Shown here: positions 38,853-64,000 of the stretch, piece after piece
How positions within the stretch are numbered: the stretch's first letter is position 1
How the letters are laid out: each line of letters starts with the position of its first letter
Assembly: GCF_028368995.1 (NCBI RefSeq)
Contig: NZ_JAQNDL010000002.1
Span: 673,724 to 737,723, forward strand
Source of the DNA: Nannocystis bainbridge
Lineage (GTDB): Bacteria; Myxococcota_A; Polyangia; Nannocystales; Nannocystaceae
Direction of reading: 5' to 3'
DNA: 64,000 bases
Notes under the pieces: generated by a model
Seen by the model: only the letters and a program-made list of their open reading frames with translations
Databases searched by the model: none
What the model was told of the DNA's origin: nothing
Position numbers and translations under genes: made by a program

Positions 38853-38908
38853 GTCATGCCCTCACGGCCATGTCCTCAAAGACATGGCCGCAGCGACATG
38901 TCCTCACG
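38853..38908. repeat. array of 4 units of the 14-bp repeat overlapping the stop codon of the large minus-strand gene
   Basis: gtcatgccctcacg / gccatgtcctcaaa / gacatggccgcagc / gacatgtcctcacg; the last unit supplies the TGA (38904-38906, minus strand). Confidence 0.8.
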
Positions 38909-41900: not shown

Positions 41901-44123
41901 GTTGGATCTGGCCGAAGAGACAGGTAAGGCCGAGCCCGCCGGCGCGGGAGAGCTGGCCGAAGCGACAGGCGGAGCTTCTTCCAGCGCGGTGGAGCTGGTC
42001 GAAGAGACAGGTGAGGCCGAGCTCGCCGGTGCGGGAGAGCTGGTCGAAGAGACAGGCGGAGCGGCTTCCGACGGGCGAGTGGCGCTGTCGTTCGCGCCGG
42101 GAGCGAGGTTGTCGGGCGGCGTGGTGGCGGCGCCGACGGGGATGCCGACCAGGGTGCGGCGGTCCGCGAGACCGGAGGAGTCCCTCGCGCGGGGCGTGGG
42201 CCGGGTCGTGGGCGCCGGCGGGAGGATGATGAGCGGCGTATCGGGGGCGATCGCCATCCCGGCGAACGAGCCGCCGCCGTCGTCGAACCCACGCGGGGGA
42301 ACGAGCGGCGCGTCAGGGGCGACGGGCACGGGGTCGAAGCTCGACGGCCGGGTCGGCGACGGTTGCGGGGCGGGGTTCGCGGTGATGCTCGCCGAATCGG
42401 TCTCGGGCGCGCTGTCGTAGGCGGCCGTCTGACGGCTGGCAGCGGGGGTGGGGGCGGGGTCGTCGGTGAGGCTGTCCTCGAGGCCAGGCTGCTGCGCGTG
42501 CCGTGAGGCCCGGGCCGCGTCGGCTGCGAACGCCTCGGTGAGGGCGCTGGGCTCGCCCTTGTTCGCGGGGCGCGCGTCGGGGATGGTCGCGGCGGGCCTG
42601 TCCTCGGGGACAGCTGCGGCGAGGTCCGAGGACCTGTCCGGAGAGGCAGGTGCCGAACCCGACGGCTCGCCGGCCGCGGACGGCGAGGTCGCGGGGACAG
42701 GCTGAGGCAGATCGACCCGGGCCGTCGAGCCTTCGGCGGCAGGACGCGACGAATCGACGGAGATGTCCTCGGGGACAGGCGCGAGCGACTCGTCGCGCGC
42801 GGTCGCGCCGTTGCCGGCTCCGCGCAGCGAGCCCGCGTCCGCAGGGCGGGGCGAAGCGGCCGTCGCGGAACCACTGGTAGCAGGGCTCCCGGCGAGCCCG
42901 GAGGCGCGGGCGGCGGTGGTCGGACCGGACATCGCGGCCGGTCGGGGGCCGGCGTTTTGCCTGTCCGCGGGGACAGGTACGTCGGTCCCTCGCGCCTCGG
43001 TCAGCGGCGCCGCGGCGTCCTGGGTCGCGCCGAGCGCACGTGCATCGGCGGCGTCGCGCGGCCTGTCCGCTGGGACAGGCGCATCCGCGGCGCGGAGTTC
43101 GGGCGTCGCTCCGGCCGAGGTGTCGGCGGGGTTGTCCGCAAGGACAGGCGCTTCGGGCGAGGCGTCGGCGGGGCTGTCCGCAAGGACAGGCGCTTCGGGC
43201 GAGGCCTCGGCGGGGCTGTCCGCAAGGACAGGCGATTGGGCCGAGGCGTCGGCGGGGCTGTCCGCAAGGACAGGCGCCGTCGCCTCGTGAGCGTCGCGGG
43301 CCCCGGAGGCGTTCGCGGACTCGTCCGTCGCGCTCGCGTCGTCGGAGCCACCGATCTCACCCGGCGCGACCTCATCCTCGGCCATGTCCGAAGAGACAGG
43401 CCGCTCGTCGCTCGTCGACAAGTCGGGCGTCGCAGCCCCGGCGCCCGTCGAGCTGTCCGCGGGGACAGGTTCTCCGGCCGTCGGCGCATCGGCGACGGAC
43501 CGGACCGAAGAGCCAGGCGATTCGACGCCCGCCGGCTTGGCGGCGGCTGCGTCCCCGCGCTCGGCCTGCCTGTCCTCAAGGACATGTGCACTCGTCAGCT
43601 CGCTCGCCGGCCCGTGGGTGGGGACGAGGCTGATCGTGAGCGAGGAGGTGCGCATCGCCTCGAGATAGTCGAGCAGGATCAGCGCGTAGCGGGGCGCGAG
43701 GATCGAGCCGGTCCGCTCGGCCGCGATCTTGGCCAGGCAGCACTCGGGCGCGACCACCGGGTAGAAGCCGCGGACCATGCGATAAAGCTGGCCGAGCTTG
43801 GCGTCGGGCAGGTCGGGGTGGACGGCGACGATCAGGCGACCGTCCTCCTGCACGAGCGGCATGGCCCAGCCGATGTCGACCAGGTCGCGCGGGACGTGCT
43901 CCCACGGGCGGGCCGGCCCGCGCTCGAGCAGCCGCACCGGCGCGCCCGGGAGGCCGCACGCGCTCTGCAGCAGGTGATCGAGCTGCACCGGGGTCATCAG
44001 CCCGAGCTCGAGGATCGCGGTGTCGAGACTGCCGCCGGCTTGTTGCTGCCGCCGGGTCGCGGCCTCGAGATCGGCGCGCGACAGCGGACCGTTGGCTTCG
44101 AGGTGGCGCAGGAGGAGGCTCAC
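38904..44123 (-). CDS. large multidomain protein: N-terminal T2SS-E N-terminal (GspE-N/MshEN-like) domain, long acidic Pro/Ala/Ser-rich repeat region, C-terminal HEAT-like repeats
   Basis: GTG 44123 overlaps RDD stop as GTGA. N-terminal about 140 aa resemble the T2SSE_N fold. The centre is low complexity with 14-aa (42-nt) PVLADSPAEASPEA repeats and PVPED motifs. C-terminal HEAT-like repeats VREAALEALCSI, VRRWAADELARI. Opposite-strand ORFs inside are artifacts. Confidence 0.6.
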   Translation of the reverse strand: MSLLLRHLEANGPLSRADLEAATRRQQQAGGSLDTAILELGLMTPVQLDHLLQSACGLPGAPVRLLERGPARPWEHVPRDLVDIGWAMPLVQEDGRLIVAVHPDLPDAKLGQLYRMVRGFYPVVAPECCLAKIAAERTGSILAPRYALILLDYLEAMRTSSLTISLVPTHGPASELTSAHVLEDRQAERGDAAAAKPAGVESPGSSVRSVADAPTAGEPVPADSSTGAGAATPDLSTSDERPVSSDMAEDEVAPGEIGGSDDASATDESANASGARDAHEATAPVLADSPADASAQSPVLADSPAEASPEAPVLADSPADASPEAPVLADNPADTSAGATPELRAADAPVPADRPRDAADARALGATQDAAAPLTEARGTDVPVPADRQNAGPRPAAMSGPTTAARASGLAGSPATSGSATAASPRPADAGSLRGAGNGATARDESLAPVPEDISVDSSRPAAEGSTARVDLPQPVPATSPSAAGEPSGSAPASPDRSSDLAAAVPEDRPAATIPDARPANKGEPSALTEAFAADAARASRHAQQPGLEDSLTDDPAPTPAASRQTAAYDSAPETDSASITANPAPQPSPTRPSSFDPVPVAPDAPLVPPRGFDDGGGSFAGMAIAPDTPLIILPPAPTTRPTPRARDSSGLADRRTLVGIPVGAATTPPDNLAPGANDSATRPSEAAPPVSSTSSPAPASSASPVSSTSSTALEEAPPVASASSPAPAGSALPVSSARSNEPADAAPVPSTSASEAAVVGADEALIESSTKKPPALPQAMVMTLAQRLDAARAALATARERDRITEALVKAASLVAPRVALFGVKREGLRVLAAPGSALRLSEGLVIPLPEGGLLDRAVSGQGPLHLLIEPSLSFAVGQPLGIPCIFEPVLAGGRTVLMLYVDRAGVAFDPRERTVLRELCDTARQSLEALLRLLGWVVPGGTVGAGAADRARPSVRPHPIVSEDEADAPAAVPPVPEDIPEPEPEPAVAAAAPETPDEPPPSPARLTDEPGFGDSSSAASRSRGRSSGSSSSSSSSRGRGIITLKNPIRRDDPSTVTPLPVRAESSAVVRAQPSADEPEPSADEQDYEDLTDDHEADSPPPRRDGPGLGLAPVPVPLGPENGPDSPLVARFAAMFTRPPVPTVTIDLTDRPGTFGHGRSDTSGPPAAARADMPGWIATAEPSGIEDPLPVASALRSAADARVDHDPASTLPGAPRVMLDETARGGLPDPEFDDWPRAASDTPTILDLSPPLTHAPLLVESLAAPDAKTVLDIPPLVEPGASGPLIPNLVAPPGTPGAVRRRRPAEPSAEEPVLVIPKTLRRSSGLTATPHPMARRSGPDELEGGPTLSMPTTLIGPRSGRRRAKHEPRPEASSDVLTMPRLVREADDVPAASSSTSGHVPEDMSSETGPEGHVAEDTPRDDATEAAATASAAAAPPTDAAPADRPAEAGPTTALDEREIDAVLEAFLQNPAEWTSVSRLRALDERGLARLAARFPGPIDLANATTFPPPSAHGPLLRACVELGHAVSPHVLALFASVRPQIRFYAAFLFQELRDPRCLRPLAELAFDPDPDVRLIATRVLESYSRVPDFAAVAAEIRGDLESEDHDRQLLAVEAAGTLRDTLAVPRLIDLLAVRDKHVREAALEALCSITAKHHGYRAQRWRAWYAEHGQEPRIEWVIDGLRHRDEAVRRWAADELARITGQRIPFPAEGDRRSRDLALRAWQAWWDSNREDFTTGP

Positions 44124-44701
44124 TGTTCCCTCACGACGTAGGTGCCCGTCAGATAGTCGTGGAAGGCCCGCTTCTCGCGGTCGAAGACCATCCACAGCGA
44201 GCCGAGGCCGCCGGGCACCAGGCCGACGGCGGTGCCCGCGAATCGCACGGTGGCGCGCACCGGACCGACCTTGCCGCCGGCGCGGTGGACCACGCGGATG
44301 CCCGTGAGCTTCTGCCCGGGTGTCCTCCCGGACAGGGCGATGAACAGCACGAAGTAAATCGCGACCATCACCAGCAGGGGCGCGAGCCACACGAGGATCT
44401 CGAGCGGCTCGACGGTGAGGAGCTGCAACAGGCCGGCCCACGAGAAGCCGCCGCGCACCGGGCTCGCCTCGCCGAGCACGCGCTGCAGGCCGAGGTGCAG
44501 CGGGCCCGCGGTGACCAGCAAGATCGCGGCGTCGACCACCGCGGCGGCGAAGCGGCGCCAGAAGCCGGCGACGCGCACCGGCACCAGCGCTTGCCCGCAC
44601 GCGGGGCACGTCGGTCGCCCGTCATTGACGAGGCCGATGTCCAGCGCCGCGTCGCAGCTCGGACACGGGGCGGGGCGCTCCTTGCGAGACCAAAACGCCA
44701 T
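44120..44701 (-). CDS. RDD family membrane protein with N-terminal zinc-ribbon
   Basis: MAFWSRKERPAPCPSCDAAL...CPACGQ zinc ribbon; then RDD-type TM helices and conserved FDREKRAFHDYLTGTYVV C-terminus. Confidence 0.7.
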   Translation of the reverse strand: MAFWSRKERPAPCPSCDAALDIGLVNDGRPTCPACGQALVPVRVAGFWRRFAAAVVDAAILLVTAGPLHLGLQRVLGEASPVRGGFSWAGLLQLLTVEPLEILVWLAPLLVMVAIYFVLFIALSGRTPGQKLTGIRVVHRAGGKVGPVRATVRFAGTAVGLVPGGLGSLWMVFDREKRAFHDYLTGTYVVREQ

Positions 44702-53928: not shown

Positions 53929-55053
53929 TCAGCCGGGATCGAGGCCGACGCTCTTGACGATGGCGGTCATCGCGGGGCGGGCGGCGGCGAGGTCGTCGCG
54001 GGTCTTGATCGGGAGGAAGCGGGCGCGGTCGACTCGCAGGCAGGCGGTGCGGGCGAATTCGGTGATCTGGCCGATGAGCTGTTCGAACTGGATGACGGCG
54101 AGGTCGTCACGGCCGGGCCACTCGACGGCGCGCTCGACGGGGAACCAGGTGAGGGGGTAGGGGCGCTCGAGCGCGGCGAGGGAGATCCACAGGGTGTTGG
54201 TGTTGAAGTGCGGGTACTGGGCGAGAGAGGTGCCGGGAGGGAGGCGGAAGGACTCGATGATGGTGGCACGGCCGTCGAGGTCGGCGACGCAGCCGCCAGC
54301 GTCCTCGGGGGCGCGAGCGACGACCTCGACGCTGAGCTCGGCGCCGCCTTCGACGGCTTCGAGGTGAGCACCGAGGACGGTGGGGTCGAGGGAGGCGCCG
54401 AGGTTGTCGACGTTGGAGACGAGGAGGTGCTCGACGCCGCGGGCCCGCAGCTCGGCGACGATGCCGCTGTCGCGGACGCGCCGCAGGGTGTCGCCGTGGC
54501 CAGGGGCGGCGTAGACGGTGGTGTCCGGCAAGAGGTCGGCGCCGGGCAGGGTGACGAGCGGAGTGCCGTCGGGGAGGACGCGCGGCATGAGCGACTGCAA
54601 GAACTCGTGACGATCACGCTCGGGGATGCCCGACCAACCAAGGGTGGCGAGGTGATCGCGGGAGGCGGCAGCGGTGGCGAAGCTGTGCATGACGACCGCG
54701 GGGACACCAGCGGCGCGGACACCAGCGAGCTTGACGGCGAGGAAGGAGAGGTCGGGCCGGTCGGGCAAGACGGGGACGACGCCCTTGACGACGCCGCCGA
54801 ACCTCGTGGCCATGCCGCCGTTCAAGATCAGGGCGGCGACCTTGCGCGCAGCCAGAGCTGCCTCGCCGCGGGCCCGCCTGGCAGGGCGGGCGTGAGGCTC
54901 GTCGAGGTCGAGCAAGGCGTCGTCGCCGAGCGGGCGCGGCGGGGCAGGCAGGCGAGCGCGCGTGGGGCTGAGCTCGCCGCGGGCGAGGGCGCTGCGCAGC
55001 TGATCGAAGAGAGCAGCGTCGAAGGCGATGTCGGCGACCGAGGGGCGGAGCAT
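53929..55053 (-). CDS. UTP--glucose-1-phosphate uridylyltransferase (UDPGP family, eukaryotic-type)
   Basis: ILNGGMATRFGGVVKGV nucleotide-binding loop, VSNVDNLGA; 374 aa. Confidence 0.7.
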   Translation of the reverse strand: MLRPSVADIAFDAALFDQLRSALARGELSPTRARLPAPPRPLGDDALLDLDEPHARPARRARGEAALAARKVAALILNGGMATRFGGVVKGVVPVLPDRPDLSFLAVKLAGVRAAGVPAVVMHSFATAAASRDHLATLGWSGIPERDRHEFLQSLMPRVLPDGTPLVTLPGADLLPDTTVYAAPGHGDTLRRVRDSGIVAELRARGVEHLLVSNVDNLGASLDPTVLGAHLEAVEGGAELSVEVVARAPEDAGGCVADLDGRATIIESFRLPPGTSLAQYPHFNTNTLWISLAALERPYPLTWFPVERAVEWPGRDDLAVIQFEQLIGQITEFARTACLRVDRARFLPIKTRDDLAAARPAMTAIVKSVGLDPG

Positions 55054-55333
55054 GTCGCGCTGGTCTTACTCCACGTCCGGCATGAGGTCGAACCGAGGGC
55101 CGCGAAACGCCCGCACGCGCGCGGTCCAGGCGGCTGGTCGGCGCCGGCCCGCCGAGGTGCGCAAGTCCCTGCGGAACCACCGCGAGCGTGGGAGCCAGAT
55201 ACGCCTCGCGGTCGAACGCGGGCCGTGACGCGCGTCGGTGAGGGGGCTCGGTGCTCGAGTTTCGCGGTGACGCGCGTCGGTGAGGTCGCTCGGCGAGAGC
55301 GCGCCCCTTCGTGATCGACGCGCAGGTCGGGGC

Positions 55334-56428
55334 TCAGAGGCGACCGACGGAGCGCGCCCAGGCGACGGTGTGCTCGAGGCCCTTGGCGAGCGGCCACTGC
55401 GGCGCGTACTCGAGCTCGCGCACGGCCCGGCTGTCGTCGCACCACCAGCCGGGAGCCATGCTGCCGCGCGCCTTGTCGAGGGTCAGCGCGGGGGCCTTGC
55501 CGCGCAGGCGACCGATGGCGTGGTTGATGCCGGCGACGGTCCACACGGCGACCTGCGGCATCGGCAGGGCGAGGGCGCGGCGACCGAGCGCGGCGGCGGC
55601 GGCCCGCCCGAAGTCGACGACGGTGCTGCGCTGGCCGTCGGTCAGGTAGTAGATGCCGGCGCCGGTGGGGTGCGAGCTGTCCTCGGGGACATGGTCGAAG
55701 GGGCTGCCGTGATCGGCGAGCACGTGGTCGCCCTGGCGGGGGATCGGGATGCCGCGAGCGCCGGCGCGGGCGATGCCGTCGACGAGGTCGAAGGCGTGGA
55801 TGAAGGACATCCACGTGGATCGCATGCCGGGCTGGGCGATCACCCCGAACTTGGCGGAGCGGATCATCTGCAGCATGTCGAGGTCGCGCGGGCCGTAGAC
55901 GGCGGGCGGACGCACGATCACGGCCTCGACGTCGCCGGCGCGCGCGGCCGCGAAGATCAGCCGCTCGCCGTCGAGCTTGCTGTCGCCGTAGAGCGTGTAG
56001 CCGACGCGCGGGGCGTGGTGCTCGCGCCGCGCGACCTCGGGGTGCGAGGGGCCGGCGGCCATCAGCGAGGAGACGTAGACGAGCCGCCGCGGCCGTCGTG
56101 GGGCCTGACGGATCGCCGCGAGCACGTTGTCGACCCCGGCGGCGTTCGCCAGCGCGAACTGCTCGCGCGTGAACGCGGCGGTCAGACCGGCCACGTGATA
56201 GACGACCTCGGCGCCGTCGAACGCGGCGGCCATGGCTTCGACGTCCGTCAGCGAGGCGCGCACGAGCTCGGGTCGCGCGTCTGTCCGCGCGAGCGCGTCG
56301 GCGAGGTTGTCGAGGTTGGCGCTGGCGCGGACCATCGCTCGCACCGCGTCGCCGCCCGCGAGCAAGCGATCGACGAGGTGGCTGCCGATGAACCCGTTGG
56401 CCCCGGTGACGACGACCTTCGTGGGCAC
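55334..56428 (-). CDS. NAD-dependent epimerase/dehydratase
   Basis: VVVTGANGFIGSHLV Rossmann motif, YxxxK (YGDSK); internal repeat-derived segment at 55678..55700 (HVPEDSS). Confidence 0.75.
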   Translation of the reverse strand: MPTKVVVTGANGFIGSHLVDRLLAGGDAVRAMVRASANLDNLADALARTDARPELVRASLTDVEAMAAAFDGAEVVYHVAGLTAAFTREQFALANAAGVDNVLAAIRQAPRRPRRLVYVSSLMAAGPSHPEVARREHHAPRVGYTLYGDSKLDGERLIFAAARAGDVEAVIVRPPAVYGPRDLDMLQMIRSAKFGVIAQPGMRSTWMSFIHAFDLVDGIARAGARGIPIPRQGDHVLADHGSPFDHVPEDSSHPTGAGIYYLTDGQRSTVVDFGRAAAAALGRRALALPMPQVAVWTVAGINHAIGRLRGKAPALTLDKARGSMAPGWWCDDSRAVRELEYAPQWPLAKGLEHTVAWARSVGRL

Positions 56429-56838
56429 GATGCGGGGGGATTACCGGGCGCGCGCCGCTTCCGTCAAGGCTGTGACGTCGCACTCGCGAAGCCTCGATCG
56501 CGGTCTTGTGTCCGCGTGACATTCAGCCAGTGTGCGACGCATTTCGCAGTCCACACGCGAGCGCGAGCGCGAACCGGCCGTCGAGGTCGGTGGCAGGTCA
56601 CCGAGATTGTTGCACTCGAGATTAACTACCAGCGGCCGATGCAGCCGCATGCGGGCGCCTCACGGCGCATCATTTTATGCATCGGTTTAAATAGTTCGGC
56701 GATAAGGCCAGCGCGTCGCAATCTGCAACACGTGAAGCTACGCATCAGCGCGCGCTGCACGTGGATCCGCATGCGATGAAGAACAAAATTTCCGTGACAG
56801 CCGCGATACTTTCGCTGTAACTACGCCCGGGCCTCGAT

Positions 56839-58113
56839 ATGCCGGGGAGTACCGTAATGGGCCGCGAAGCCGAGCACAGTTTGGCCGACTTCTACTTCTC
56901 GGACAGCGACGATCCGCTCTGTCCGCCCGAGGGCTTCGTGCAGTGGGCCGAGGCCGGCTCGTGGGCGATGTCGATGTACGAACCCCACATGCTGGGGGCC
57001 GTCGCACCGCGCATGGCCATCGAGCGCGCCGGGGTTCGCAGCGACGTCATCAACCTCAGCTCGTACAACTACCTCGGGCTGGCGACCCACCCGGAGGTCG
57101 TCGAGGCGGCGCAGGAGGCCCTGCGCACCTACGGCACCGGCGCGTGCGGCTCGCCGCTGCTGTCGGGCCTGTCGGACCTGCACCGCGGGCTCGAGCAGGA
57201 GCTCGCGGCGTTCCTCGGCCAGGAGGACTGCATCCTCTTCAACAGCGGCTTCGCCGGCGGCATGGGCACGCTGGCGGGCGTGCTGCGCAAGGGCGACGTG
57301 GCGATCCTCGACGCCAAGACGCACCTTTGCTCGATCGACGGCGCCAAGCTGGCGCGCGCCAAGCTGGTGTTCTTCGACCACAACGATCCCGACTCGCTGG
57401 ACCAGGCGCTGAAGGACAGCGAGGGTCAGCGCCGGCTGGTGGTGGTCGAGGGCGTGTACTCGATGGACGGCGACACCGCCGATCTGCCGAAGCTCCTGCC
57501 GGTGGCCGAGAAGCACGGCGTCGGCGTGCTGATCGACGAGGCCCACTCGATCCTCGTGTACGGCGCGAACGGCCGCGGGGTCGTCGAGCACTACGGCGCC
57601 GAGAAGTCGATCGGCCTGCAGTTCGCGACCTTCAGCAAGGCGTTCGCCGGCTGCGGCGGCTTCACCGTCGGGCCGCGCTCGCTGCTGCACTACATGCGCT
57701 ACTACATCAACGCCTACGGCTTCAGCTGCGCGCTGCCGCCGTCGGTGGTGGCCGGGCTGCGCAAGGCGCTCGAGGTGGCGACCCGCGACAATTCGCTGCG
57801 CGAGACGCTGTGGGCCAACACCCGCTACTTCCGCGAGAAGGCGCTGCAGATCGGCCTCGACCTCGGGCATGGCTCGAGTCAGGTGGTGCCGATCATGGTC
57901 GGATCGGATCGCCGCCGGCTGTATGAGTTGACGCGCACGCTGCACCGCCGCGGGCTGTTCCTCGCGCCGGTCGACTACCCCTCGGTGCCCGAGGACGGGC
58001 TGCGCTTCCGCGTCGCGATCACGGCCGCGCATACGCGCGCCGATCTCGACCGCGCGCTCGAGATCCTCGAGGATACGATCATCCGCGGCCGCGTCGACGA
58101 GGCGGTCGAGTGA
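56839..58113 (+). CDS. alpha-oxoamine synthase family PLP enzyme (serine palmitoyltransferase / 8-amino-7-oxononanoate synthase-like)
   Basis: SSYNYLGL substrate motif, PLP-lysine region ATFSKAFAGCGGF, DEAHS; 424 aa; first gene after an AT-richer about 400-bp promoter region. Confidence 0.75.
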   Translation: MPGSTVMGREAEHSLADFYFSDSDDPLCPPEGFVQWAEAGSWAMSMYEPHMLGAVAPRMAIERAGVRSDVINLSSYNYLGLATHPEVVEAAQEALRTYGTGACGSPLLSGLSDLHRGLEQELAAFLGQEDCILFNSGFAGGMGTLAGVLRKGDVAILDAKTHLCSIDGAKLARAKLVFFDHNDPDSLDQALKDSEGQRRLVVVEGVYSMDGDTADLPKLLPVAEKHGVGVLIDEAHSILVYGANGRGVVEHYGAEKSIGLQFATFSKAFAGCGGFTVGPRSLLHYMRYYINAYGFSCALPPSVVAGLRKALEVATRDNSLRETLWANTRYFREKALQIGLDLGHGSSQVVPIMVGSDRRRLYELTRTLHRRGLFLAPVDYPSVPEDGLRFRVAITAAHTRADLDRALEILEDTIIRGRVDEAVE

Positions 58114-58138
58114 GCGGGACAGGGGAGGGGGCACGACG

Positions 58139-59146
58139 ATGACGACGCTGGTGTTCATGTTCCCAGGGCAGAGCTCGCGCTACCCGGGGATGCTCGGCAA
58201 GCTGGCCCGGCTGCATCGCCGCGCGGCCGAGGTGCTGGCGGTCTGCAGCGACGTGCTCGGCCGCGATCTCGGCGCCCACACCAGCGAGGACAACCCGACC
58301 GCGTTCGACCGCAACGTCGACGTCCAGGTCGGCGTGTTCGTCGCCAACCACATGATGCTCAGCGCGCTGCAGGCCGAGGGCGTCGACGCCGAGCTGTCGC
58401 TGGGGCTGTCGCTCGGCGAGTACAACCACCTCGTGCACATCGGCGCGCTCGAGCTGCCGGAGGCGCTGCGCCTGGTCCAGGCCCGCGGCGAGGCCTACGA
58501 CGCCGGCCCGCGCGGCATGATGGCCTCGGTCCAGCCGCTCGACCTCGAGACGCTCGAAGAGGTCGTCGAGCAGATCCGCGGCCAGGGCCTCGGGGTGCTC
58601 GAGATCGTCAACCTCAACTCGCCGAAGCAGCACGTGCTGTCGGGCGAGGCCGCCGCGGTCGAGGCCGCGGTCGCGCTGCTTGAGGACGAGCATTACGTGG
58701 TGCCGACGATCATCGAGCGCCAGGTGCCGATGCACTCGTCGCTGTTCGAGCCGGTCGGCGCGGCCATGCGGCCGTACCTGCAGCGCGCGCGCTTCAAGGC
58801 GCCGCGGCTGCCGTATCTTCCCAACCGCCGCGGCGAGCTCGTGCCGACGCCGACGCCCGCCGACTTCGTCGAGCTGCTGGCGGCGCACGTGCACACGCCG
58901 GTGCTGTGGCGCAAGTCGATCGACCGCGTGGCCGAGCGTCACCCGGGCGCGGTGTTCGTCGAGGTCGGCCCGCGCCAGGTGCTGCACAACCTGCTCGACC
59001 GCAAGTGGTCGACGCGGCCCAAGTACGCGACCGACAGCCGCGACGACGTCGCCGAGCACCTCGCCGGCGTGCTCGCGGCGCTGCGCCAGCACCTGCCGCC
59101 GACGACCCGCAAGGACAAGGCCCGGGAGGCGTCGTGGACCAGCTGA
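58139..59146 (+). CDS. malonyl-CoA:ACP transacylase-like acyltransferase (FabD family)
   Basis: FPGQSS, GLSLGEY (GxSxG), NSPKQHVLSG, catalytic His in VPMHSSLFEP. Confidence 0.75.
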   Translation: MTTLVFMFPGQSSRYPGMLGKLARLHRRAAEVLAVCSDVLGRDLGAHTSEDNPTAFDRNVDVQVGVFVANHMMLSALQAEGVDAELSLGLSLGEYNHLVHIGALELPEALRLVQARGEAYDAGPRGMMASVQPLDLETLEEVVEQIRGQGLGVLEIVNLNSPKQHVLSGEAAAVEAAVALLEDEHYVVPTIIERQVPMHSSLFEPVGAAMRPYLQRARFKAPRLPYLPNRRGELVPTPTPADFVELLAAHVHTPVLWRKSIDRVAERHPGAVFVEVGPRQVLHNLLDRKWSTRPKYATDSRDDVAEHLAGVLAALRQHLPPTTRKDKAREASWTS

Positions 59147-59688
59147 GCGGCCTCGACGCGCTGGTCAAGCAGCACCGCCGCCGGCCCGTGTTCGTGCCCG
59201 GAGAGGCCAGCACGCGGGTCGAGTTCGGGCGGGCTGCGATCGAGCGCATGCTGCCGCACCGCGATCCGTTCCTGTTCGTCGACGCGATCGACGCCGTCGA
59301 GCTGCCGCGCACGCCTGAGGCGCCGGGCATGATCCGCGGCGCGCGGACGATCGACGCCGCCGACCCGGTGTTCGCCGGTCACTTCCCCGGCGACCCGGTG
59401 TACCCGGGCGTGCTGCTGGTCGAGGCGATCGGGCAGCTCGGGATCTGTCTCCTCCACCTCATGGCCAAAGGGACAGCCAGCATCGACGCCGCGGACACGC
59501 CCGCGCGCCTGCGGCTGCTCAAGGTCCACCACGCCCTGTTTCAGGGCGGCGTCCGCCCGGGCGAGCGGCTGACGCTGCTCGCCCGCTCCCTCGAGCACAG
59601 CGACTACGTCTCGACCTGCGTCGGCCAAGCCCTCCGCGGCGAGGAGGTCCAGGCCCTCGCGGTGTTCGAGGTCTACTTGATGGACTGA
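59143..59688 (+). CDS. FabZ/FabA-like 3-hydroxyacyl-ACP dehydratase (hotdog fold)
   Basis: GTGA overlap with upstream stop; LPHRDPFLFVD ... GHFPGDPVYPGVLLVEAIGQ hotdog dehydratase signature. Confidence 0.6.
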   Translation: MSGLDALVKQHRRRPVFVPGEASTRVEFGRAAIERMLPHRDPFLFVDAIDAVELPRTPEAPGMIRGARTIDAADPVFAGHFPGDPVYPGVLLVEAIGQLGICLLHLMAKGTASIDAADTPARLRLLKVHHALFQGGVRPGERLTLLARSLEHSDYVSTCVGQALRGEEVQALAVFEVYLMD

Positions 59689-59707
59689 TCCCCCCAGAAG
59701 AGCACGC

Positions 59708-61018
59708 ATGGTCTCATCGCAGGCACAATCGCCCCGCCGCGTGGTCATCACCGGCCTCGGCATCAACACGCCGCTCGGCGACGATCTCGACACGTTCTAC
59801 GCCAACCTCGTGGCCGGCAAGTCGGCGATCACGCGCTGGAAGTGGCACAACAACGAAGGCGTCTACTCGAAGATCGGCGGCGATCTCTCGCAGTACGACG
59901 TCAAGGCCAAGCTCGAGCGCATGCGCGGCGTGCTTCCGGCCGAGGTGCACAAGCGGGCCCGCCAGCTGTGCAACAAGGCGCCGTTCTCGACGTCGCTGTC
60001 GGTGCTGTGCGCGGCCGATGCCTGGCGCGATGCCGGCATGGTCGAGGTCGCGGACCCGACCCGCTGCGCGGTGCTGGTCGGCGGTCACAACCTCAACGAG
60101 CGCTACTTCGCCGACAACTACGTCACCTTCCAGACGGAAGACCCCGACTACATCGACTCGATGGCGGCGCTGCACATGCTCGACACCGACCACGCCGGTT
60201 CGGTGAGCGAGATGCTGGGCTGGAAGGGCGCCTGCTATACGCTCGGAGGCGCGTGCGCCAGCGCCAACGTGGCCCTGCGCAACGCGATCGACGAGATCCG
60301 CCACCACGACCACGACATGGCGATGGTGGTCGGCGCGGTGCTCGACTTCTCGCAGATGGGCGTGCACGCGATGGCGCTGCTCGGCGCCATCACCTTCGAG
60401 AGCTTCAACGACACGCCCGAGCTGGCCAGCCGGCCGTACGACTCGCGGCGCGAGGGCTTCGTGCCGTCGCACGGCGCCGGCGCGCTGGTGCTCGAGGAGC
60501 TCGGCCACGCGCTGAAGCGCGGGGCGACGATCTACGCCGAGGTGCTCGGCTGCACCTCGAGCTCCGACGGCTGCCACTTGCCGTCGCCATCGACCGAGGG
60601 CCAGGCGCGCACGATCGAGCGGCTGCTGCGGCGCGCGCAGGTGCGGCCCGACGAGATCGATTTCGTCAGCGCCCACGCGACCAGCACGCCGCTCGGCGAC
60701 CTGTCCGAGCTCAACGCGATCCGCAAGGTGTTCGGCGCCCACGCCAAGAAGCTCAAGATCAACGCGCCGAAGTCGATGCTCGGCCACACCTGCTGGTCGG
60801 CGCCGGCGGTCGAGACCGTCGCGGCGATGCTGCAGATGCGCGGCGGGGTGCTGCACCCGTCGATCAACATCGACCAGCTCGACCCCGAGGTCGACGTCGA
60901 CGTGTGCGCCAACCAGGCCGTCGAGCATCGCATCGAGCTCATGGTCAAGAACTCGTTCGGCTTCGGCGGCCTCAATTGCTGCGCGCTGTACCGTCGGTGG
61001 GATCCGAACGCCCTGTGA
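59708..61018 (+). CDS. beta-ketoacyl-ACP synthase (KAS I/II-like), active-site Cys retained
   Basis: VVITGLGINTPLG, active-site region GACYTLGGACASANVA (Cys present, so not a KS0 decarboxylase), HxxxT and GHTxxxAG-like motifs (HATSTPLGD, GHTCWSAPA). Confidence 0.85.
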   Translation: MVSSQAQSPRRVVITGLGINTPLGDDLDTFYANLVAGKSAITRWKWHNNEGVYSKIGGDLSQYDVKAKLERMRGVLPAEVHKRARQLCNKAPFSTSLSVLCAADAWRDAGMVEVADPTRCAVLVGGHNLNERYFADNYVTFQTEDPDYIDSMAALHMLDTDHAGSVSEMLGWKGACYTLGGACASANVALRNAIDEIRHHDHDMAMVVGAVLDFSQMGVHAMALLGAITFESFNDTPELASRPYDSRREGFVPSHGAGALVLEELGHALKRGATIYAEVLGCTSSSDGCHLPSPSTEGQARTIERLLRRAQVRPDEIDFVSAHATSTPLGDLSELNAIRKVFGAHAKKLKINAPKSMLGHTCWSAPAVETVAAMLQMRGGVLHPSINIDQLDPEVDVDVCANQAVEHRIELMVKNSFGFGGLNCCALYRRWDPNAL

Positions 61019-61026
61019 GCCGCGCC

Positions 61027-61770
61027 ATGAACTTCTTCGTCACCGGGGGTTCGCGGGGGATCGGCGCGGGGATCGTGCTCGAGGCGGTGCGCGCCGGCCA
61101 CGACGTGGCGTTCGCGTACCGCAGCAACGACGAGGCCGCGCGCAAGATCGAGGCCGAGGCGGCGGCGATCCGACCGGGCGCCAGGTGCAAGGGCTACGCG
61201 CTCGACGTGAGCCGCTCCGACAAGGTCGGCGAGGTCGCCGACGCGGTGCTCGACGACTTCGACAGCATCGAGGTGATCGTCAACTGCGCCGGCATCAACC
61301 GCGCCAATCTCGTGGTGTCCATGTCCGACGAGGAGTGGCACGACGTGCTGGCGACCAACCTGCACGGGCCGTTCTACGTCGTGCGGGCGTTCCTGCCGTC
61401 GATGCTGGCGGCGCGGTTCGGCCGGATCGTCAACATCTCGTCGATCCAGCACAACGGCGCGGCCGGGCAGGCCAACTACGCCGCCAGCAAGGCCGGCCTG
61501 CACGGCTTCACCCAGGCGCTCGCCAAGGAGTACGGGCGCAAGGGCATCACCGCCAACGTGGTCGTGCCGGGCTTCTTCGACACCGACATGACGCGCGAGA
61601 CGATGCCGCAGGCCGCCAAGGACTACTGGCAGCAGTACTGCCCGATGCCGAAGGGCCGCATGGGCACGCTGGCCGAGCTGGCCGCGGCGGTGCTGTTTTT
61701 GGCCACGGGCGGCAGCTTCATCAACGGTCAGGTCGTGCCCGTCACCGGCGGCCTCGACTGGACGTACTGA
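61027..61770 (+). CDS. 3-oxoacyl-ACP reductase (SDR, FabG-like)
   Basis: TGGSRGIG, NCAG, catalytic YAASKAG, 247 aa. Confidence 0.85.
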   Translation: MNFFVTGGSRGIGAGIVLEAVRAGHDVAFAYRSNDEAARKIEAEAAAIRPGARCKGYALDVSRSDKVGEVADAVLDDFDSIEVIVNCAGINRANLVVSMSDEEWHDVLATNLHGPFYVVRAFLPSMLAARFGRIVNISSIQHNGAAGQANYAASKAGLHGFTQALAKEYGRKGITANVVVPGFFDTDMTRETMPQAAKDYWQQYCPMPKGRMGTLAELAAAVLFLATGGSFINGQVVPVTGGLDWTY

Positions 61771-61783
61771 GGGGAGGACGGCG

Positions 61784-63025
61784 ATGGCGCACCACCGGCC
61801 GCGCGTCGGCATCGAGCGGATCACGGCCTACCCGTGCACGCTCTCGCTCGACATGAAGCTGCTCGCAGAGGCGCGTGATCACGATCCGCGCCACCCGCTC
61901 GACGAGCTGTGGGTCCGCGAGCGCTCGCTCAACCCCACGTGGGAGGATCCGGTGACGATGGCGGTGAACGCCGCGCTGCAGATCGTCACGCCCGAGGACC
62001 GCAAGGACATCGAGCTCGTGATCGTCGGCACCGAGTCGTCGGTCGACTTCGGCAAGCCGATCTCGACCTACGTGCAGCGCTACTGCGGCCTCACCGCGAA
62101 CTGCCGCAACTTCGAGACCAAGCACGCCTGCTACGGCGGCACCGGCGGGCTGATGATGGCGGCCCACTGGGTCGCGTCGGGCGCGGCGCCCGGCAAGAAG
62201 GCGCTGGTGGTCTGCACCGATCAGAGCCGCGTGCACCTCGGCCAGCCGTGGGAGTACGTGCTCGGCGCGGCGGCGTCGGCGATGCTGGTCAGCGCCCAGC
62301 CGGACGTGCTCGAGATCGACCTCGACACCTGCGGCTACTGGACGCAGGAGATCTTCGACACCTACCGGCCGACTTCGACCAAGGAAGTCGGCCACGCGGA
62401 CACCAGCCTGTACGGCTACCTCGACGCGCTCGAGGGCGCGTACGACCACTTCGTCGCCCGCTCGGGCATGGTCGACTACGACGCCGAGTTCGCCCGCCAC
62501 ATCTATCACGTGCCGTTCGGCGGCATGACCTTCCGCGCCCACCGGGCGCTGCTGCGCCGCGGCCCGCACGAGATGGCGCTGCGCGAGGCCAGGGCCCACT
62601 TCGAGCGCAAGTCGAAGCAGGCGCTGCGCTACAACTCGCGCTTCGGCGGCACGTACACCTCGGCGACCTTCATCGCCATGCTCGGCCTCCTCGACGCCGA
62701 CCCCGAGCTGCGCGCCGGTGACAAGGTCTCGGTGTTCTCCTACGGCTCGGGCTCGTGCGCCGAGTTCTACCGCACGACCGTCGGCGAGCGCGCGCGCGAG
62801 CAGGTCGCCAGCCAGCAGCTCGCCGCCGGCCTCGATCGCCGGATGCCGCTGACGATCGCCGAGTACGAGGATCTCGAGCACCAGCGCGCCGGCTACATCG
62901 ACCAGAGCGACTACGAGGTCGACCAGTCGGGCCTGCGCGGGCTGTACGAGCGCGCCTACGCCGGCAAGGGCCGCCTCGTGCTCGACGCGGTGCGCGGCTT
63001 CCAGCGGGAGTACCGCCTGTCCTGA
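61784..63025 (+). CDS. hydroxymethylglutaryl-CoA synthase family (polyketide beta-branching HMGS, PksG/TaC-like)
   Basis: 413 aa; HMGS catalytic triad regions GTESSVDFGKP, CYGGTGGL, FIYHVPFGGMTF (His), YGSGS; followed by two ECH genes as in beta-branching cassettes. Confidence 0.8.
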   Translation: MAHHRPRVGIERITAYPCTLSLDMKLLAEARDHDPRHPLDELWVRERSLNPTWEDPVTMAVNAALQIVTPEDRKDIELVIVGTESSVDFGKPISTYVQRYCGLTANCRNFETKHACYGGTGGLMMAAHWVASGAAPGKKALVVCTDQSRVHLGQPWEYVLGAAASAMLVSAQPDVLEIDLDTCGYWTQEIFDTYRPTSTKEVGHADTSLYGYLDALEGAYDHFVARSGMVDYDAEFARHIYHVPFGGMTFRAHRALLRRGPHEMALREARAHFERKSKQALRYNSRFGGTYTSATFIAMLGLLDADPELRAGDKVSVFSYGSGSCAEFYRTTVGERAREQVASQQLAAGLDRRMPLTIAEYEDLEHQRAGYIDQSDYEVDQSGLRGLYERAYAGKGRLVLDAVRGFQREYRLS

Positions 63026-63136
63026 GGGACCGATCCATGCTGCGCACGTGCCCCGTCACACCGCCCGCGCCGCCCTTCGGCGACGCGCGGACGGATCGCT
63101 CGTCCCCCCGCCACCATCCTGCGGAGATCTGAGCCG

Positions 63137-63892
63137 ATGCGCGTCCGCTGCGAAGAGGGCGAGCTGATCCGGCGACTGTTCCTCAGGACAGGTCCTGGAG
63201 GACATGTCGCTTTGGACACCGACGGGATCGCCGCGCTGGCCGAGGCGGTCGAGCGCGCGGTCACCTTCCCGGCGCGCGCGCTGGTGATCGCCAGCGAGGG
63301 CCCGGAGTTCTGCGCAGGCATGGACCTGGCGGCGGCGCTGAAGACCCCGCCGGCGCAGATGCGGGCGGCGATGGAGCGGTTCGCCGGCTGCCTCGAGCTG
63401 CTGGCGAGCGCGCCGGTGGTGACGATCGCGGTGGTCGGCGGCCCGGCCAGCGGCGGCGGCGTCGGTCTGGCGGCCGCCTGCGATCTGGTGGTGGCGGCAA
63501 AGACGGCCACGTTCGCGCTGCCGGAGCTGCGCTACGGGCTGGTGCCGGCGGTCATCTTGCCGGCCCTCGAGGCCCGGATCGGCGCGCGGCGGATCCGGAG
63601 GTTAGCGCTCACCGGTGAGCTGGTGTCGGCGGCCCAGGCCGAGCCGTGGGGCCTCGTCGACGTCGTCACCGACGATCCCGACGCGGCCCTGCGCGGGCTC
63701 CTGCGATCGCTCTTGCGGGCGCGGCCGCAGGCGGTGGCGACCCTCAAGCGCATCACCGGGCCGGCGGGGCAGGGCGGGGTGGCCCAGACCGCGGCCGACC
63801 TCGAGGACCCCGAGCTGCGCGCGGCGCTGGCGGCCCTGCTGGCCGACGGGCAGGCGCCGCCGTGGTTCGCCAGGCTGAAAGGACAGGAATGA
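63137..63892 (+). CDS. enoyl-CoA hydratase/isomerase (crotonase) family, ECH1-like dehydratase of HMGS cassette
   Basis: Crotonase oxyanion motifs FCAGMDL and GGPASGGG; first about 25 codons coincide with a copy of the palindromic repeat so true start may be downstream. Confidence 0.6.
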   Translation: MRVRCEEGELIRRLFLRTGPGGHVALDTDGIAALAEAVERAVTFPARALVIASEGPEFCAGMDLAAALKTPPAQMRAAMERFAGCLELLASAPVVTIAVVGGPASGGGVGLAAACDLVVAAKTATFALPELRYGLVPAVILPALEARIGARRIRRLALTGELVSAAQAEPWGLVDVVTDDPDAALRGLLRSLLRARPQAVATLKRITGPAGQGGVAQTAADLEDPELRAALAALLADGQAPPWFARLKGQE

Positions 63893-64000
63893 ACGCGCAT
63901 GTCCCTACGGACAGCCTCGTCGAGGTGACGCTCGAGCGCGACGGCGTGGCGGTGCTGACGATGCGAGACGCCGCCGGCAAGAACGCGTTCAGCCGGGCCT
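63890..64000 (+). CDS. second enoyl-CoA hydratase family protein (ECH2-like), 5' fragment
   Basis: ATGA overlap with upstream stop; MNAHVPTDSLVEVTLERDGVAVLTMRDAAGKNAFSRA is a typical crotonase N-terminus; runs off window. Confidence 0.45.

Follow-up and report, generated by a model that had tools for sequence, protein, structure and literature searches.

A small operon of Nannocystis that probably makes a methyl-branched amino lipid: an HMG synthase cassette joined to a type II fatty acid synthase set and an alpha-oxoamine synthase

Gene cassettes centred on a 3-hydroxy-3-methylglutaryl (HMG) synthase (HMGS) are known as accessories of polyketide synthases (PKSs), and have been reported in trans-acyltransferase, cis-acyltransferase and type II aromatic PKS systems (PMC11522927). 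Those compared here are PksF/G/H/I with AcpK of bacillaene, CurB–F of curacin and VirB–E of virginiamycin (PMC10006238, PMC11522927). Canonical beta-branching cassettes use a condensation-inactive ketosynthase, termed KS0, and carry the route from HMG to the branch on an acyl carrier protein (ACP) (PMC10006238). The same carbon logic is established on coenzyme A in the AIB pathway of Myxococcus xanthus, where HMG is converted via methylglutaconyl and dimethylacrylyl to isovaleryl (PMC5389471). Bacterial ceramides are made by a known core of serine palmitoyltransferase (Spt), an N-acyltransferase (bCerS) and a reductase (CerR), the genes of which are often clustered (PMC11334938). Considered here is a stretch of 64,000 nucleotides from Nannocystis bainbridge (contig NZ_JAQNDL010000002.1, positions 673,724 to 737,723), termed the window, in which an HMGS cassette is found together with fatty acid synthase (FAS)-type genes and an alpha-oxoamine synthase (AOS) at positions 56839–64000. 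This gene set probably makes a methyl-branched amino lipid that is new to description.

The window is ~71% G+C, and third-codon-position GC periodicity and open reading frame boundaries delimit eight plus-strand genes in 56839–64000 (Table 1): AOS, an acyltransferase (AT), a dehydratase (DH), a ketosynthase (KS), a ketoreductase (KR), HMGS, ECH1 and the beginning of ECH2. An initial annotation of the DNA had described eight co-directional genes there; this arrangement holds, and every family assignment is borne out by Pfam and NCBIfam. It also described them as tightly packed, with several 4-nt overlaps. The packing is indeed tight, but a 4-nt overlap occurs at a single junction, where the ATG of ECH2 overlaps the stop codon of ECH1 (ATGA). 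AT and DH overlap by 13 nt, as they do in the gene calls of N. pusilla. The remaining junctions are gaps of 8–25 nt, apart from one of 111 nt between HMGS and ECH1.

Six Nannocystis genomes are collinear with positions 53929–64000, at 92–94% nucleotide identity, and Nannocystis proteins match the HMGS at 95% identity. Exact-sequence look-ups with the ECH1 and HMGS of the window gave no contig, and what lies past position 64000 was read from these orthologous loci of relatives, and not from DNA of the window strain. In all six, the rest of ECH2 is followed by two paralogous short-chain dehydrogenases/reductases (SDRs; ~270 aa), an 88-aa ACP and then unrelated convergent genes, and the operon ends ~3 kb beyond the window end. 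By this collinearity the operon is taken to comprise 11 genes, of which the first eight lie in the window; the window thus holds nearly the whole of a small operon with one predicted carrier protein. An ACP and an enoyl reductase (ER) had been noted as not visible, which is correct inside the window, but both are found just past its end in the orthologous loci.

Table 1. Coordinates of the genes and of the intergenic region discussed in the text
Feature	Position in window	Strand	Basis or remark
AOS, alpha-oxoamine synthase, pyridoxal phosphate (PLP)-dependent	open reading frame opens 56839, likely start 56857, ends 58113	+	Pfam Aminotran_1_2 3e-47
AT, FabD-like malonyl-CoA:ACP transacylase	58139–59146	+	Pfam Acyl_transf_1; NCBIfam fabD below cutoff
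DH, FabZ/ApeI-like 3-hydroxyacyl-ACP dehydratase	59134–59688	+	GTG start; Pfam FabA 1e-18
KS, FabF-like ketosynthase	59708–61018	+	Pfam ketoacyl-synt N and C domains
KR, FabG-like 3-ketoacyl-ACP reductase, classical YxxxK SDR	61027–61770	+	Pfam adh_short, adh_short_C2, KR
HMGS, HMG synthase homologue, aldol-type branching enzyme	61784–63025	+	Pfam HMG_CoA_synt N and C domains
ECH1, crotonase family, putative HMG-ACP dehydratase	63137–63892	+	Pfam ECH_1 9e-32
ECH2, decarboxylase type, first 37 codons, rest cut by window end	63889–64000	+	N. exedens ECH2 match
Extended-SDR gene, 364 aa (Epimerase/3beta-HSD/NmrA family), divergent	55334–56428	-	Pfam Epimerase 1e-31, 3Beta_HSD 2e-20
Divergent intergenic control region, 410 bp, GC 0.61	56429–56838	.	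between extended-SDR gene and AOS

The operon resembles the PKS beta-branching cassettes in its HMGS, which has the Glu/Cys/His triad and the C-terminal tail seen in CurD, PksG and VirC. The triad (E84, C116, H242) is invariant in 74 sequences; invariance of catalytic residues, here and below, was counted over 48–74 orthologues depending on the protein. Among PDB entries the highest score is with CurD (273 bits, query residues 6–411), followed by PksG (232 bits, residues 8–411), M. xanthus MvaS (225 bits, residues 3–364 only), VirC (223 bits, residues 7–410) and Gram-positive MvaS (~185 bits, to residue ~365). The C-terminal ~45 residues (365–411, including GKGRLVL...F.R.Y) align with CurD, PksG and VirC and with no MvaS. 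Unlike that of CurD and PksG, the beta6-beta7 loop (~residues 146–165) is of MvaS length. It aligns gap-free with the loop of M. xanthus MvaS, which is also the top match of the central HMGS region, and does not have the insertions of 7+3 residues found in CurD and PksG. HMG-CoA synthases share a conserved form of this loop, and in PKS HMGSs it varies and contains insertions; PKS HMGSs can take long acceptor chains, and the insertions have been linked to varied, larger substrates (PMC11522927). Acetoacetyl is the substrate of the CoA enzymes and also of CurD, which takes it as acetoacetyl-ACP (PMC11522927). The compact pocket predicted for the Nannocystis HMGS is consistent with a small acceptor such as acetoacetyl.

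We read this HMGS as a distinct lineage, ACP-dependent to judge by its context and its C-terminal tail, and the mosaic may represent a lineage intermediate between CoA-type and PKS-type enzymes. The initial annotation had named, as a result that would speak against polyketide-type branching, primary metabolism genes alone downstream and an HMGS that groups with MvaS. This was not observed, CurD being closest by full-length score; PksG, MvaS and VirC are close behind, however, and the loop is MvaS-like. Assignment as the MvaS of a mevalonate or AIB pathway was rejected on a score of 258 bits for the prokaryotic HMG-CoA synthase model TIGR01835 (cutoff 360), on the context of an ACP and a PksI-type ECH2, and on a tail that is not that of MvaS. 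In the nannosterol study, an HMG-CoA synthase homologue of N. pusilla was counted as evidence for the mevalonate pathway, and no HMG-CoA reductase was found there (PMC10152446). That homologue could be the HMGS of the present cluster.

Further likeness to the PKS cassettes lies in the ECH2 of PksI/CurF type, in ECH1 as a putative dehydratase of the crotonase family, in a small discrete ACP and a discrete AT, and in the expected chemistry of aldol addition, dehydration and decarboxylation. The ECH2 fragment is identical at 36 of 37 residues to the N-terminus of N. exedens ECH2, which has PksI (153 bits) and CurF ECH2 (141 bits) as its best PDB matches, with generic crotonases at 90 bits or less. 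The Pseudenhygromyxa orthologue reaches 278.6 bits on the PksI-type model PRK07110, the cutoff of which is 215. With ECH2 orthologues above this cutoff, the proposal that HMGS, ECH1 and ECH2 form a triad of the polyketide beta-branching kind is supported. Conservation within the cluster is lowest for ECH1 (mean identity 0.44), and among NCBIfam models PRK07112 fits it best, with 128 bits where the cutoff is 250. The ACP (86–89 aa) scores best on PRK07117, at 60 bits against 79. It is very strongly conserved across phyla, with the core GANSLDIVEVVSCSMRELKVKVPR, as expected if the ACP serves many partner enzymes. In PKSs, the ACPs that act as acceptors in beta-branching are marked by a Trp six positions past the Ser that carries phosphopantetheine, and the ACP of the cluster does not have it.

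The operon differs from the PKS cassettes in having neither a megasynthase nor a separate acceptor ACP, in a KS that is not a KS0, and in that the cassette is embedded in a full type II FAS set (KR, DH and two ER-like SDRs) with a predicted release by AOS. The best NCBIfam model of the KS is PRK07103, a 'polyketide beta-ketoacyl:ACP synthase' (360 bits, cutoff 445), followed by fabF. The catalytic Cys had been described as intact; when aligned to FabF, Cys183, His323 and His360 are all in place, and none of them varies among 66 sequences. By sequence the protein is therefore a condensing enzyme and not a condensation-inactive KS0. It may have decarboxylase activity beside condensation. In AT, Q11, S91 (GLSLGE), R116 and H199 are invariant in 58 sequences. 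Also invariant among orthologues are H83 and E97 in DH, the orthologues of which carry an ApeI-like Pfam domain, and Y151/K155 of the YAASK motif in KR.

The two extra SDRs have the spacing Tyr-x6-Lys in place of YxxxK in 116 of 119 homologues. The Tyr-x6-Lys spacing is typical of the enoyl reductases FabI and FabL, and FabL is the best NCBIfam model of these proteins. When one of the pair was compared with the PDB, scores were 64 bits or less, and many of the matches were to FabI, with some to glucose dehydrogenases and imine reductases.

None of the components reaches the equivalog cutoff of its housekeeping family. Scores and cutoffs, in bits, are 147 and 261 for AT (fabD), 327 and 494 for KS (fabF), 239 and 298 for KR (3-oxoacyl-ACP reductase, FabG), 80 and 113 for DH (FabZ), 98–151 and 328 for the ER-like SDRs (FabL), and 32 and 70 for the ACP. 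These are therefore dedicated paralogues and not parts of primary FAS, in agreement with the initial annotation. An assignment to housekeeping type II FAS (FabD/F/G/Z/I with AcpP) was rejected, as no component attains a curated Fab score. The discrete KS, KR, DH and ACP, the ApeI-like domain of DH, and a KR score of 189 bits, below cutoff, on the FlxB model also recall the type II FAS-like systems of aryl polyenes and flexirubins. Unlike those systems, the operon has no second KS of the chain-length-factor type and no aryl-starter machinery, and it does have ER-like SDRs, the HMGS cassette and AOS.

Comparison with the AIB pathway (MvaS, LiuC, AibA/B and AibC) is instructive at the level of carbon chemistry, as the operon is proposed to follow the same course, with acetoacetyl and acetyl giving HMG, 3-methylglutaconyl, dimethylacrylyl and then isovaleryl for the priming of iso-chains (PMC5389471). 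It differs in that the intermediates would presumably be ACP-bound, decarboxylation would be by a crotonase-type ECH2 and not AibA/B, and reduction would be by SDR-type enzymes and not AibC. Furthermore, a single operon unites the pathway with AOS and a private FAS.

AOS is the proposed chain-releasing enzyme, which would condense an amino acid with the acyl-ACP. Neither its PLP lysine (K267) nor D233/H236 varies over 48 sequences. NCBIfam scores are 325 bits for bioF, 300 for Kbl, 297 for Spt and 199 for CqsA, all below cutoff. On the three Spt models AOS reaches 297, 287 and 233 bits, where the cutoffs are 640, 500 and 670. Scores for bioF and Kbl are equal or higher, and AOS was accordingly not placed in the Spt family. 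In the PDB, the broad-specificity Thermus AOS and the SPT of Sphingobacterium multivorum tie at 246 bits. Two further subfamily assignments were rejected: BioF, on a cutoff of 426 for TIGR00858 and on finding no other biotin-synthesis family among the mapped or recurrent neighbours, and CqsA/LqsA, on a cutoff of 428 for PRK07179 and on finding no conserved sensor kinase beside the cluster.

The gene set recurs well outside Nannocystis. A scan based on the HMGS alignment, with one genome per species, gave 80 loci, on which the reference proteins were mapped by tblastn; components were counted in the 43 species-representative loci that are flanked by 6 kb or more on both sides. The core of DH, KS, KR, ECH1, SDR and ACP is present in 41 of the 43, with the ACP found in all Nannocystis relatives. 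Both SDRs are found in 40, AT in 39, AOS in 34 and the complete set in 32. The order DH-KS-KR-HMGS-ECH1-ECH2 is fixed, and AOS, the ACP and the SDR pair shift position among loci. Cultured hosts are Nannocystis, Plesiocystis, Enhygromyxa and Pseudenhygromyxa. Metagenome-assembled genomes (MAGs) with the gene set belong to Polyangiaceae, Kofleriaceae and Haliangiales, or are labelled Vicinamibacterales or Terriglobia (Acidobacteriota), Planctomycetota or Phycisphaeraceae, Armatimonadota, Eremiobacterota and others. On one contig labelled 'Armatimonadota' (L008/L041, 1–1276), a planctomycete-type PSCyt/PSD multi-domain gene lies beside the cluster, and some MAG phylum labels may therefore be wrong. 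Classical PKS-like contexts account for two of the 80 loci. Four of the 80 show HMGS alone or, in three of these, with ECH1 and ECH2 alongside.

Several variants were seen among these loci. A different AOS, ~35% identical to that of the window, occurs in L005/L006/L046 (7388–16639), L079, L080 and L083, often followed by a conserved 240-aa protein for which no Pfam or NCBIfam family match was found. The L005 form of the cluster lacks AT and ECH1, has a phosphopantetheinyl transferase (PPTase) gene and is flanked by MMPL, MlaA and FtsX/ABC genes. A gene of the FAD amine-oxidase family adjoins AOS or the ACP in L008/L041 (14649–16172), L067 (~8.5 kb) and L003 (849–2960), and one of these variants also has an acyltransferase of family PF03417 (AAT). 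This suggests that the amine is oxidized or further tailored in these lineages. Two Nannocystaceae MAG loci, L028 (4390–5850) and L033, have a TolC-like outer-membrane efflux gene at the usual position of AOS. Beyond these, the recurrent flanking families across loci amount to lineage-specific synteny and occasional fatty acyl-AMP ligase (FAAL), GT4 glycosyltransferase and PPTase genes.

A pathway can be proposed, each step of which is inferred from conserved catalytic residues and family membership. The AT would load malonyl from malonyl-CoA onto the dedicated ACP. The KS would decarboxylate this to acetyl-ACP and then condense it with malonyl-ACP to give acetoacetyl-ACP, to the beta-keto group of which HMGS would add an acetyl-derived enolate, forming HMG-ACP. 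Dehydration by ECH1 would give methylglutaconyl-ACP, decarboxylation by ECH2 3-methylcrotonyl-ACP, and reduction by one of the Tyr-x6-Lys SDRs isovaleryl-ACP. Iterative extension of this primer by KS, KR, DH and ER would produce an iso-branched acyl-ACP. As KR and DH are present, at least one fully reducing elongation cycle would be required, and therefore an acyl group longer than C5. Finally, condensation of the acyl-ACP with serine, alanine or glycine by AOS would release a methyl-branched sphingoid-like base in the form of an alpha-aminoketone, and its ketone may be reduced by the product of the divergent extended-SDR gene. An acetoacetyl acceptor is favoured because the closest solved HMGS is CurD and because the loop is MvaS-like.

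In general terms, then, a branched acyl chain would be built on a private ACP by the type II FAS and the HMGS cassette and off-loaded by AOS, and this scheme is given slightly better than even odds of being right. The iso-terminal position of the branch and the sphingoid-like nature of the product are held less firmly. The branched aminolipid or sphingoid-like product named in the initial annotation is still the most reasonable one to expect from the gene set. A wider reading is put forward tentatively and is less likely to be true than not: that bacteria of several phyla share a lipid pathway new to description, in which polyketide beta-branching chemistry within a type II FAS, on a private ACP, turns malonyl-CoA alone into a long-chain base with an iso-branched or isoprenoid-like methyl pattern, which AOS releases.

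A number of points weigh against this scheme. AOS has no place in any curated subfamily, as its scores on the models for Spt, BioF, Kbl and CqsA are all below cutoff. It is absent within 10 kb in nine of the 43 well-flanked loci, seven of which have the FAS/HMGS core, and therefore release by AOS is not obligatory. The KS with an intact Cys is atypical of HMGS cassettes, where a KS0 is found, and a single KS must both decarboxylate and elongate. In an iterative system with a single ACP, any beta-ketoacyl-ACP is in principle a possible substrate of both KR and HMGS, and a restriction of branching to the C4 stage is suggested by the similarity to CurD and MvaS and by loop length. The assignment of ECH1 is weak, as PksH is only sixth among its PDB matches (78 bits), and the gene is missing in variant L005. 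That the extra SDRs are enoyl reductases is suggested by their motif and by a weak similarity. The product, its chain length and the amino acid partner are all predictions from the genes.

The genes around the operon bear on the nature of the product. The protein encoded by the extended-SDR gene has as best NCBIfam models HpnA, OleD (a 2-alkyl-3-oxoalkanoate reductase, which is a lipid ketoreductase) and SdmB (a sterol enzyme), all below cutoff. The gene holds the same divergent position in the Nannocystis, Enhygromyxa, Plesiocystis and Pseudenhygromyxa loci, and its product may be a reductase for the aminoketone. In Enhygromyxa, Plesiocystis and Pseudenhygromyxa, and in several MAGs of Polyangia, the operon adjoins a gene for a 380–410-aa GNAT protein, named N-acetyltransferase at NCBI and matching PF13480 at 23.6 bits, barely over the gathering score. 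In some loci a FAAL gene follows it, and in L017, L019, L020 and L029 GNAT and ligase genes lie just past the cluster ACP. The N. exedens orthologue of the GNAT lies ~6.5 Mb from the cluster, in a GNAT-ACP-AMP-ligase trio (L089, 8001–11278) that looks like an N-acylation module for the amine product of the cluster. Enhygromyxa loci have a GT4 glycosyltransferase gene, the product of which resembles a lipid glycosyltransferase. In related genera, then, the GNAT, ACP, FAAL and GT4 neighbours hint that the base is N-acylated and glycosylated, which would give a ceramide-like or glycolipid-like product.

The parallel with the Spt, bCerS and CerR core of bacterial ceramide synthesis is suggestive. 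An AOS-family enzyme is found beside a dedicated ACP, with the extended-SDR gene adjacent, and a GNAT with its own ACP and fatty acyl-AMP ligase is adjacent in sister genera and elsewhere in N. exedens; the likeness is one of gene family and position. The sphingolipid loci of Caulobacter and Sphingomonas also carry a dedicated ACP, together with an acyl-ACP synthetase. What sets the operon apart is an AOS score of 297 bits where the Spt cutoff is 640, and the predicted source of the acyl chain, which the private FAS and HMGS cassette would assemble de novo on the ACP instead of its being drawn from the fatty-acid pool by a synthetase.

Other explanations of the gene set have to be considered. 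The initial annotation took the eight genes for the edge of a hybrid lipid/polyketide cluster, with ACPs or trans-AT PKS megasynthases possibly to follow past 64000. On such a reading their products would be trans-acting branching and tailoring enzymes of a PKS/nonribosomal peptide synthetase (NRPS) system. The best models of KS, ECH1, ECH2 and ACP (PRK07103, PRK07112, PRK07110 and PRK07117) were presumably built on the pksX sub-cluster of B. subtilis, and HMGSs in true PKS contexts (L071 and L087) turned up in the same scan at 47–50% identity. This explanation is nonetheless largely refuted and retains hardly any probability. No megasynthase of PKS or NRPS type came to light on extension downstream through the relatives; ECH2, the two ER-like SDRs and the one ACP close the operon in the six collinear Nannocystis genomes, where convergent unrelated genes come next, and in ~40 further loci. 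No multi-domain PKS was found within 10 kb in the 41 core-containing loci, nor upstream in the window, where the divergent extended-SDR gene is followed by genes for UDP-glucose pyrophosphorylase, phosphoglucose isomerase and a MatE transporter and by housekeeping genes, and the KS is not a KS0. Quite improbable also is a role in primary metabolism, in which the locus would supply an isovaleryl primer at the CoA or ACP level for bulk iso-fatty acids, as in AIB, and AOS would be a housekeeping BioF or Kbl. AIB chemistry is known in myxobacteria, the central part of HMGS matches M. xanthus MvaS best, and bioF is the top model for AOS. But AOS scores 325 bits where the bioF cutoff is 426, no other biotin-synthesis family was found among the mapped or recurrent neighbours, and the decarboxylase present is an ECH2 of PksI/CurF type, with no recurrent flanking candidate of AibA/B type. 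Moreover, a dedicated conserved ACP and a private FAS set, with components under equivalog cutoffs and hence paralogues of the housekeeping enzymes, are co-inherited with AOS in 34 of the 43 loci across phyla.

The two remaining explanations concern the product. The branch may not be iso-terminal: the cassette might act on longer beta-ketoacyl-ACPs, once near the carboxyl end or repeatedly, to give a mid-chain beta-methyl or a multi-methyl, isoprenoid-like chain that AOS off-loads. PKS HMGSs do accept long acceptor chains (PMC11522927). Alternating branching and fully reducing cycles would account for KR and DH beside two enoyl reductases, one of the paralogous SDRs perhaps taking the trisubstituted beta-methyl-enoyl and the other ordinary enoyl-ACPs. 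There being one ACP and one iterative KS, each cycle would present a beta-keto substrate. This is considered unlikely, as no feature able to program alternating cycles was found and the ACP lacks the Trp of acceptor ACPs. In addition, the best solved match, CurD, uses acetoacetyl-ACP, and the short MvaS-like loop is without the insertions tied to larger substrates (PMC11522927). Doubtful too is a small diffusible product, whereby a short C5–C9 branched acyl-ACP and AOS would yield a volatile or signalling alpha-aminoketone, as precursor of a CAI-1/LAI-1-type hydroxyketone, with the neighbouring SDR as possible reductase, or of an alkylpyrazine. The AOS family includes the autoinducer synthases CqsA and LqsA, a reductase gene adjoins the operon, an amine oxidase is beside AOS in variants L008 and L067, and the cluster is compact and widely transferred. 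Yet the CqsA score is far under those of bioF, Kbl and Spt and under its own cutoff, and no CqsS-type sensor kinase is conserved beside the cluster. A complete KR/DH/ER elongation set has been kept, and the accessory genes are of lipid type (FAAL, GNAT and GT4, with MMPL/MlaA in one variant).

The intergenic region between the extended-SDR gene and AOS had been described as AT-richer and promoter-like, with repeated CACGTG and ATGCAT palindromes. Its GC content of 0.61 compares with 0.71 for the window. CACGTG is indeed present twice (P ~0.012 at window density), and the second copy alone is kept in all six Nannocystis species, but ATGCAT occurs once, and the palindrome that is repeated, two times, is CGCATGCG. 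An alignment of the six species shows long invariant blocks across the region. Identity to N. exedens is 94% over its 3′ 298 bp, as against 76% in the HMGS-ECH1 spacer and ~91% at third codon positions. By this comparison the region is conserved well above neutral expectation, and it is probably a shared regulatory region. An Rfam scan of it gave no family, and a sigma-70/terminator scan no sigma-70 promoter consensus. The ATG at 56839 is absent in N. radixulma, and that at 56857 has a Shine-Dalgarno-like GGGGAG 7 nt upstream; the latter is probably the start of AOS, giving a 418-aa protein. Elsewhere in the window, on the minus strand at 38904–44609, is a 1901-aa open reading frame with weak HEAT-repeat matches alone, overlapped by a 1085-aa open reading frame on the opposite strand.

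HMGS cassettes are known as PKS accessories; what appears new is such a cassette inside a minimal, free-standing FAS, joined to a predicted amino-acid-condensing release enzyme. In the open-access literature nothing was found on an HMGS cassette coupled to an AOS, nor on this cluster in Nannocystaceae, and an account in a subscription journal is possible. For annotation, the HMGS of the Nannocystis operon should not be taken for a mevalonate-pathway enzyme. A unit of 10–11 genes with a fixed core order recurs in dozens of species of several phyla. If the proposed scheme is true, it would be a new and portable route to methyl-branched amino lipids, such as sphingoid-like bases, from malonyl-CoA alone, and branched sphingoid-type lipids could be made without branched-chain amino-acid catabolism or the housekeeping FAS. 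With one ACP and no megasynthase, the operon would be a compact, expressible system for studies of beta-branching, and it would provide a genetic handle on unidentified aminolipids or sphingolipids of soil and marine bacteria.

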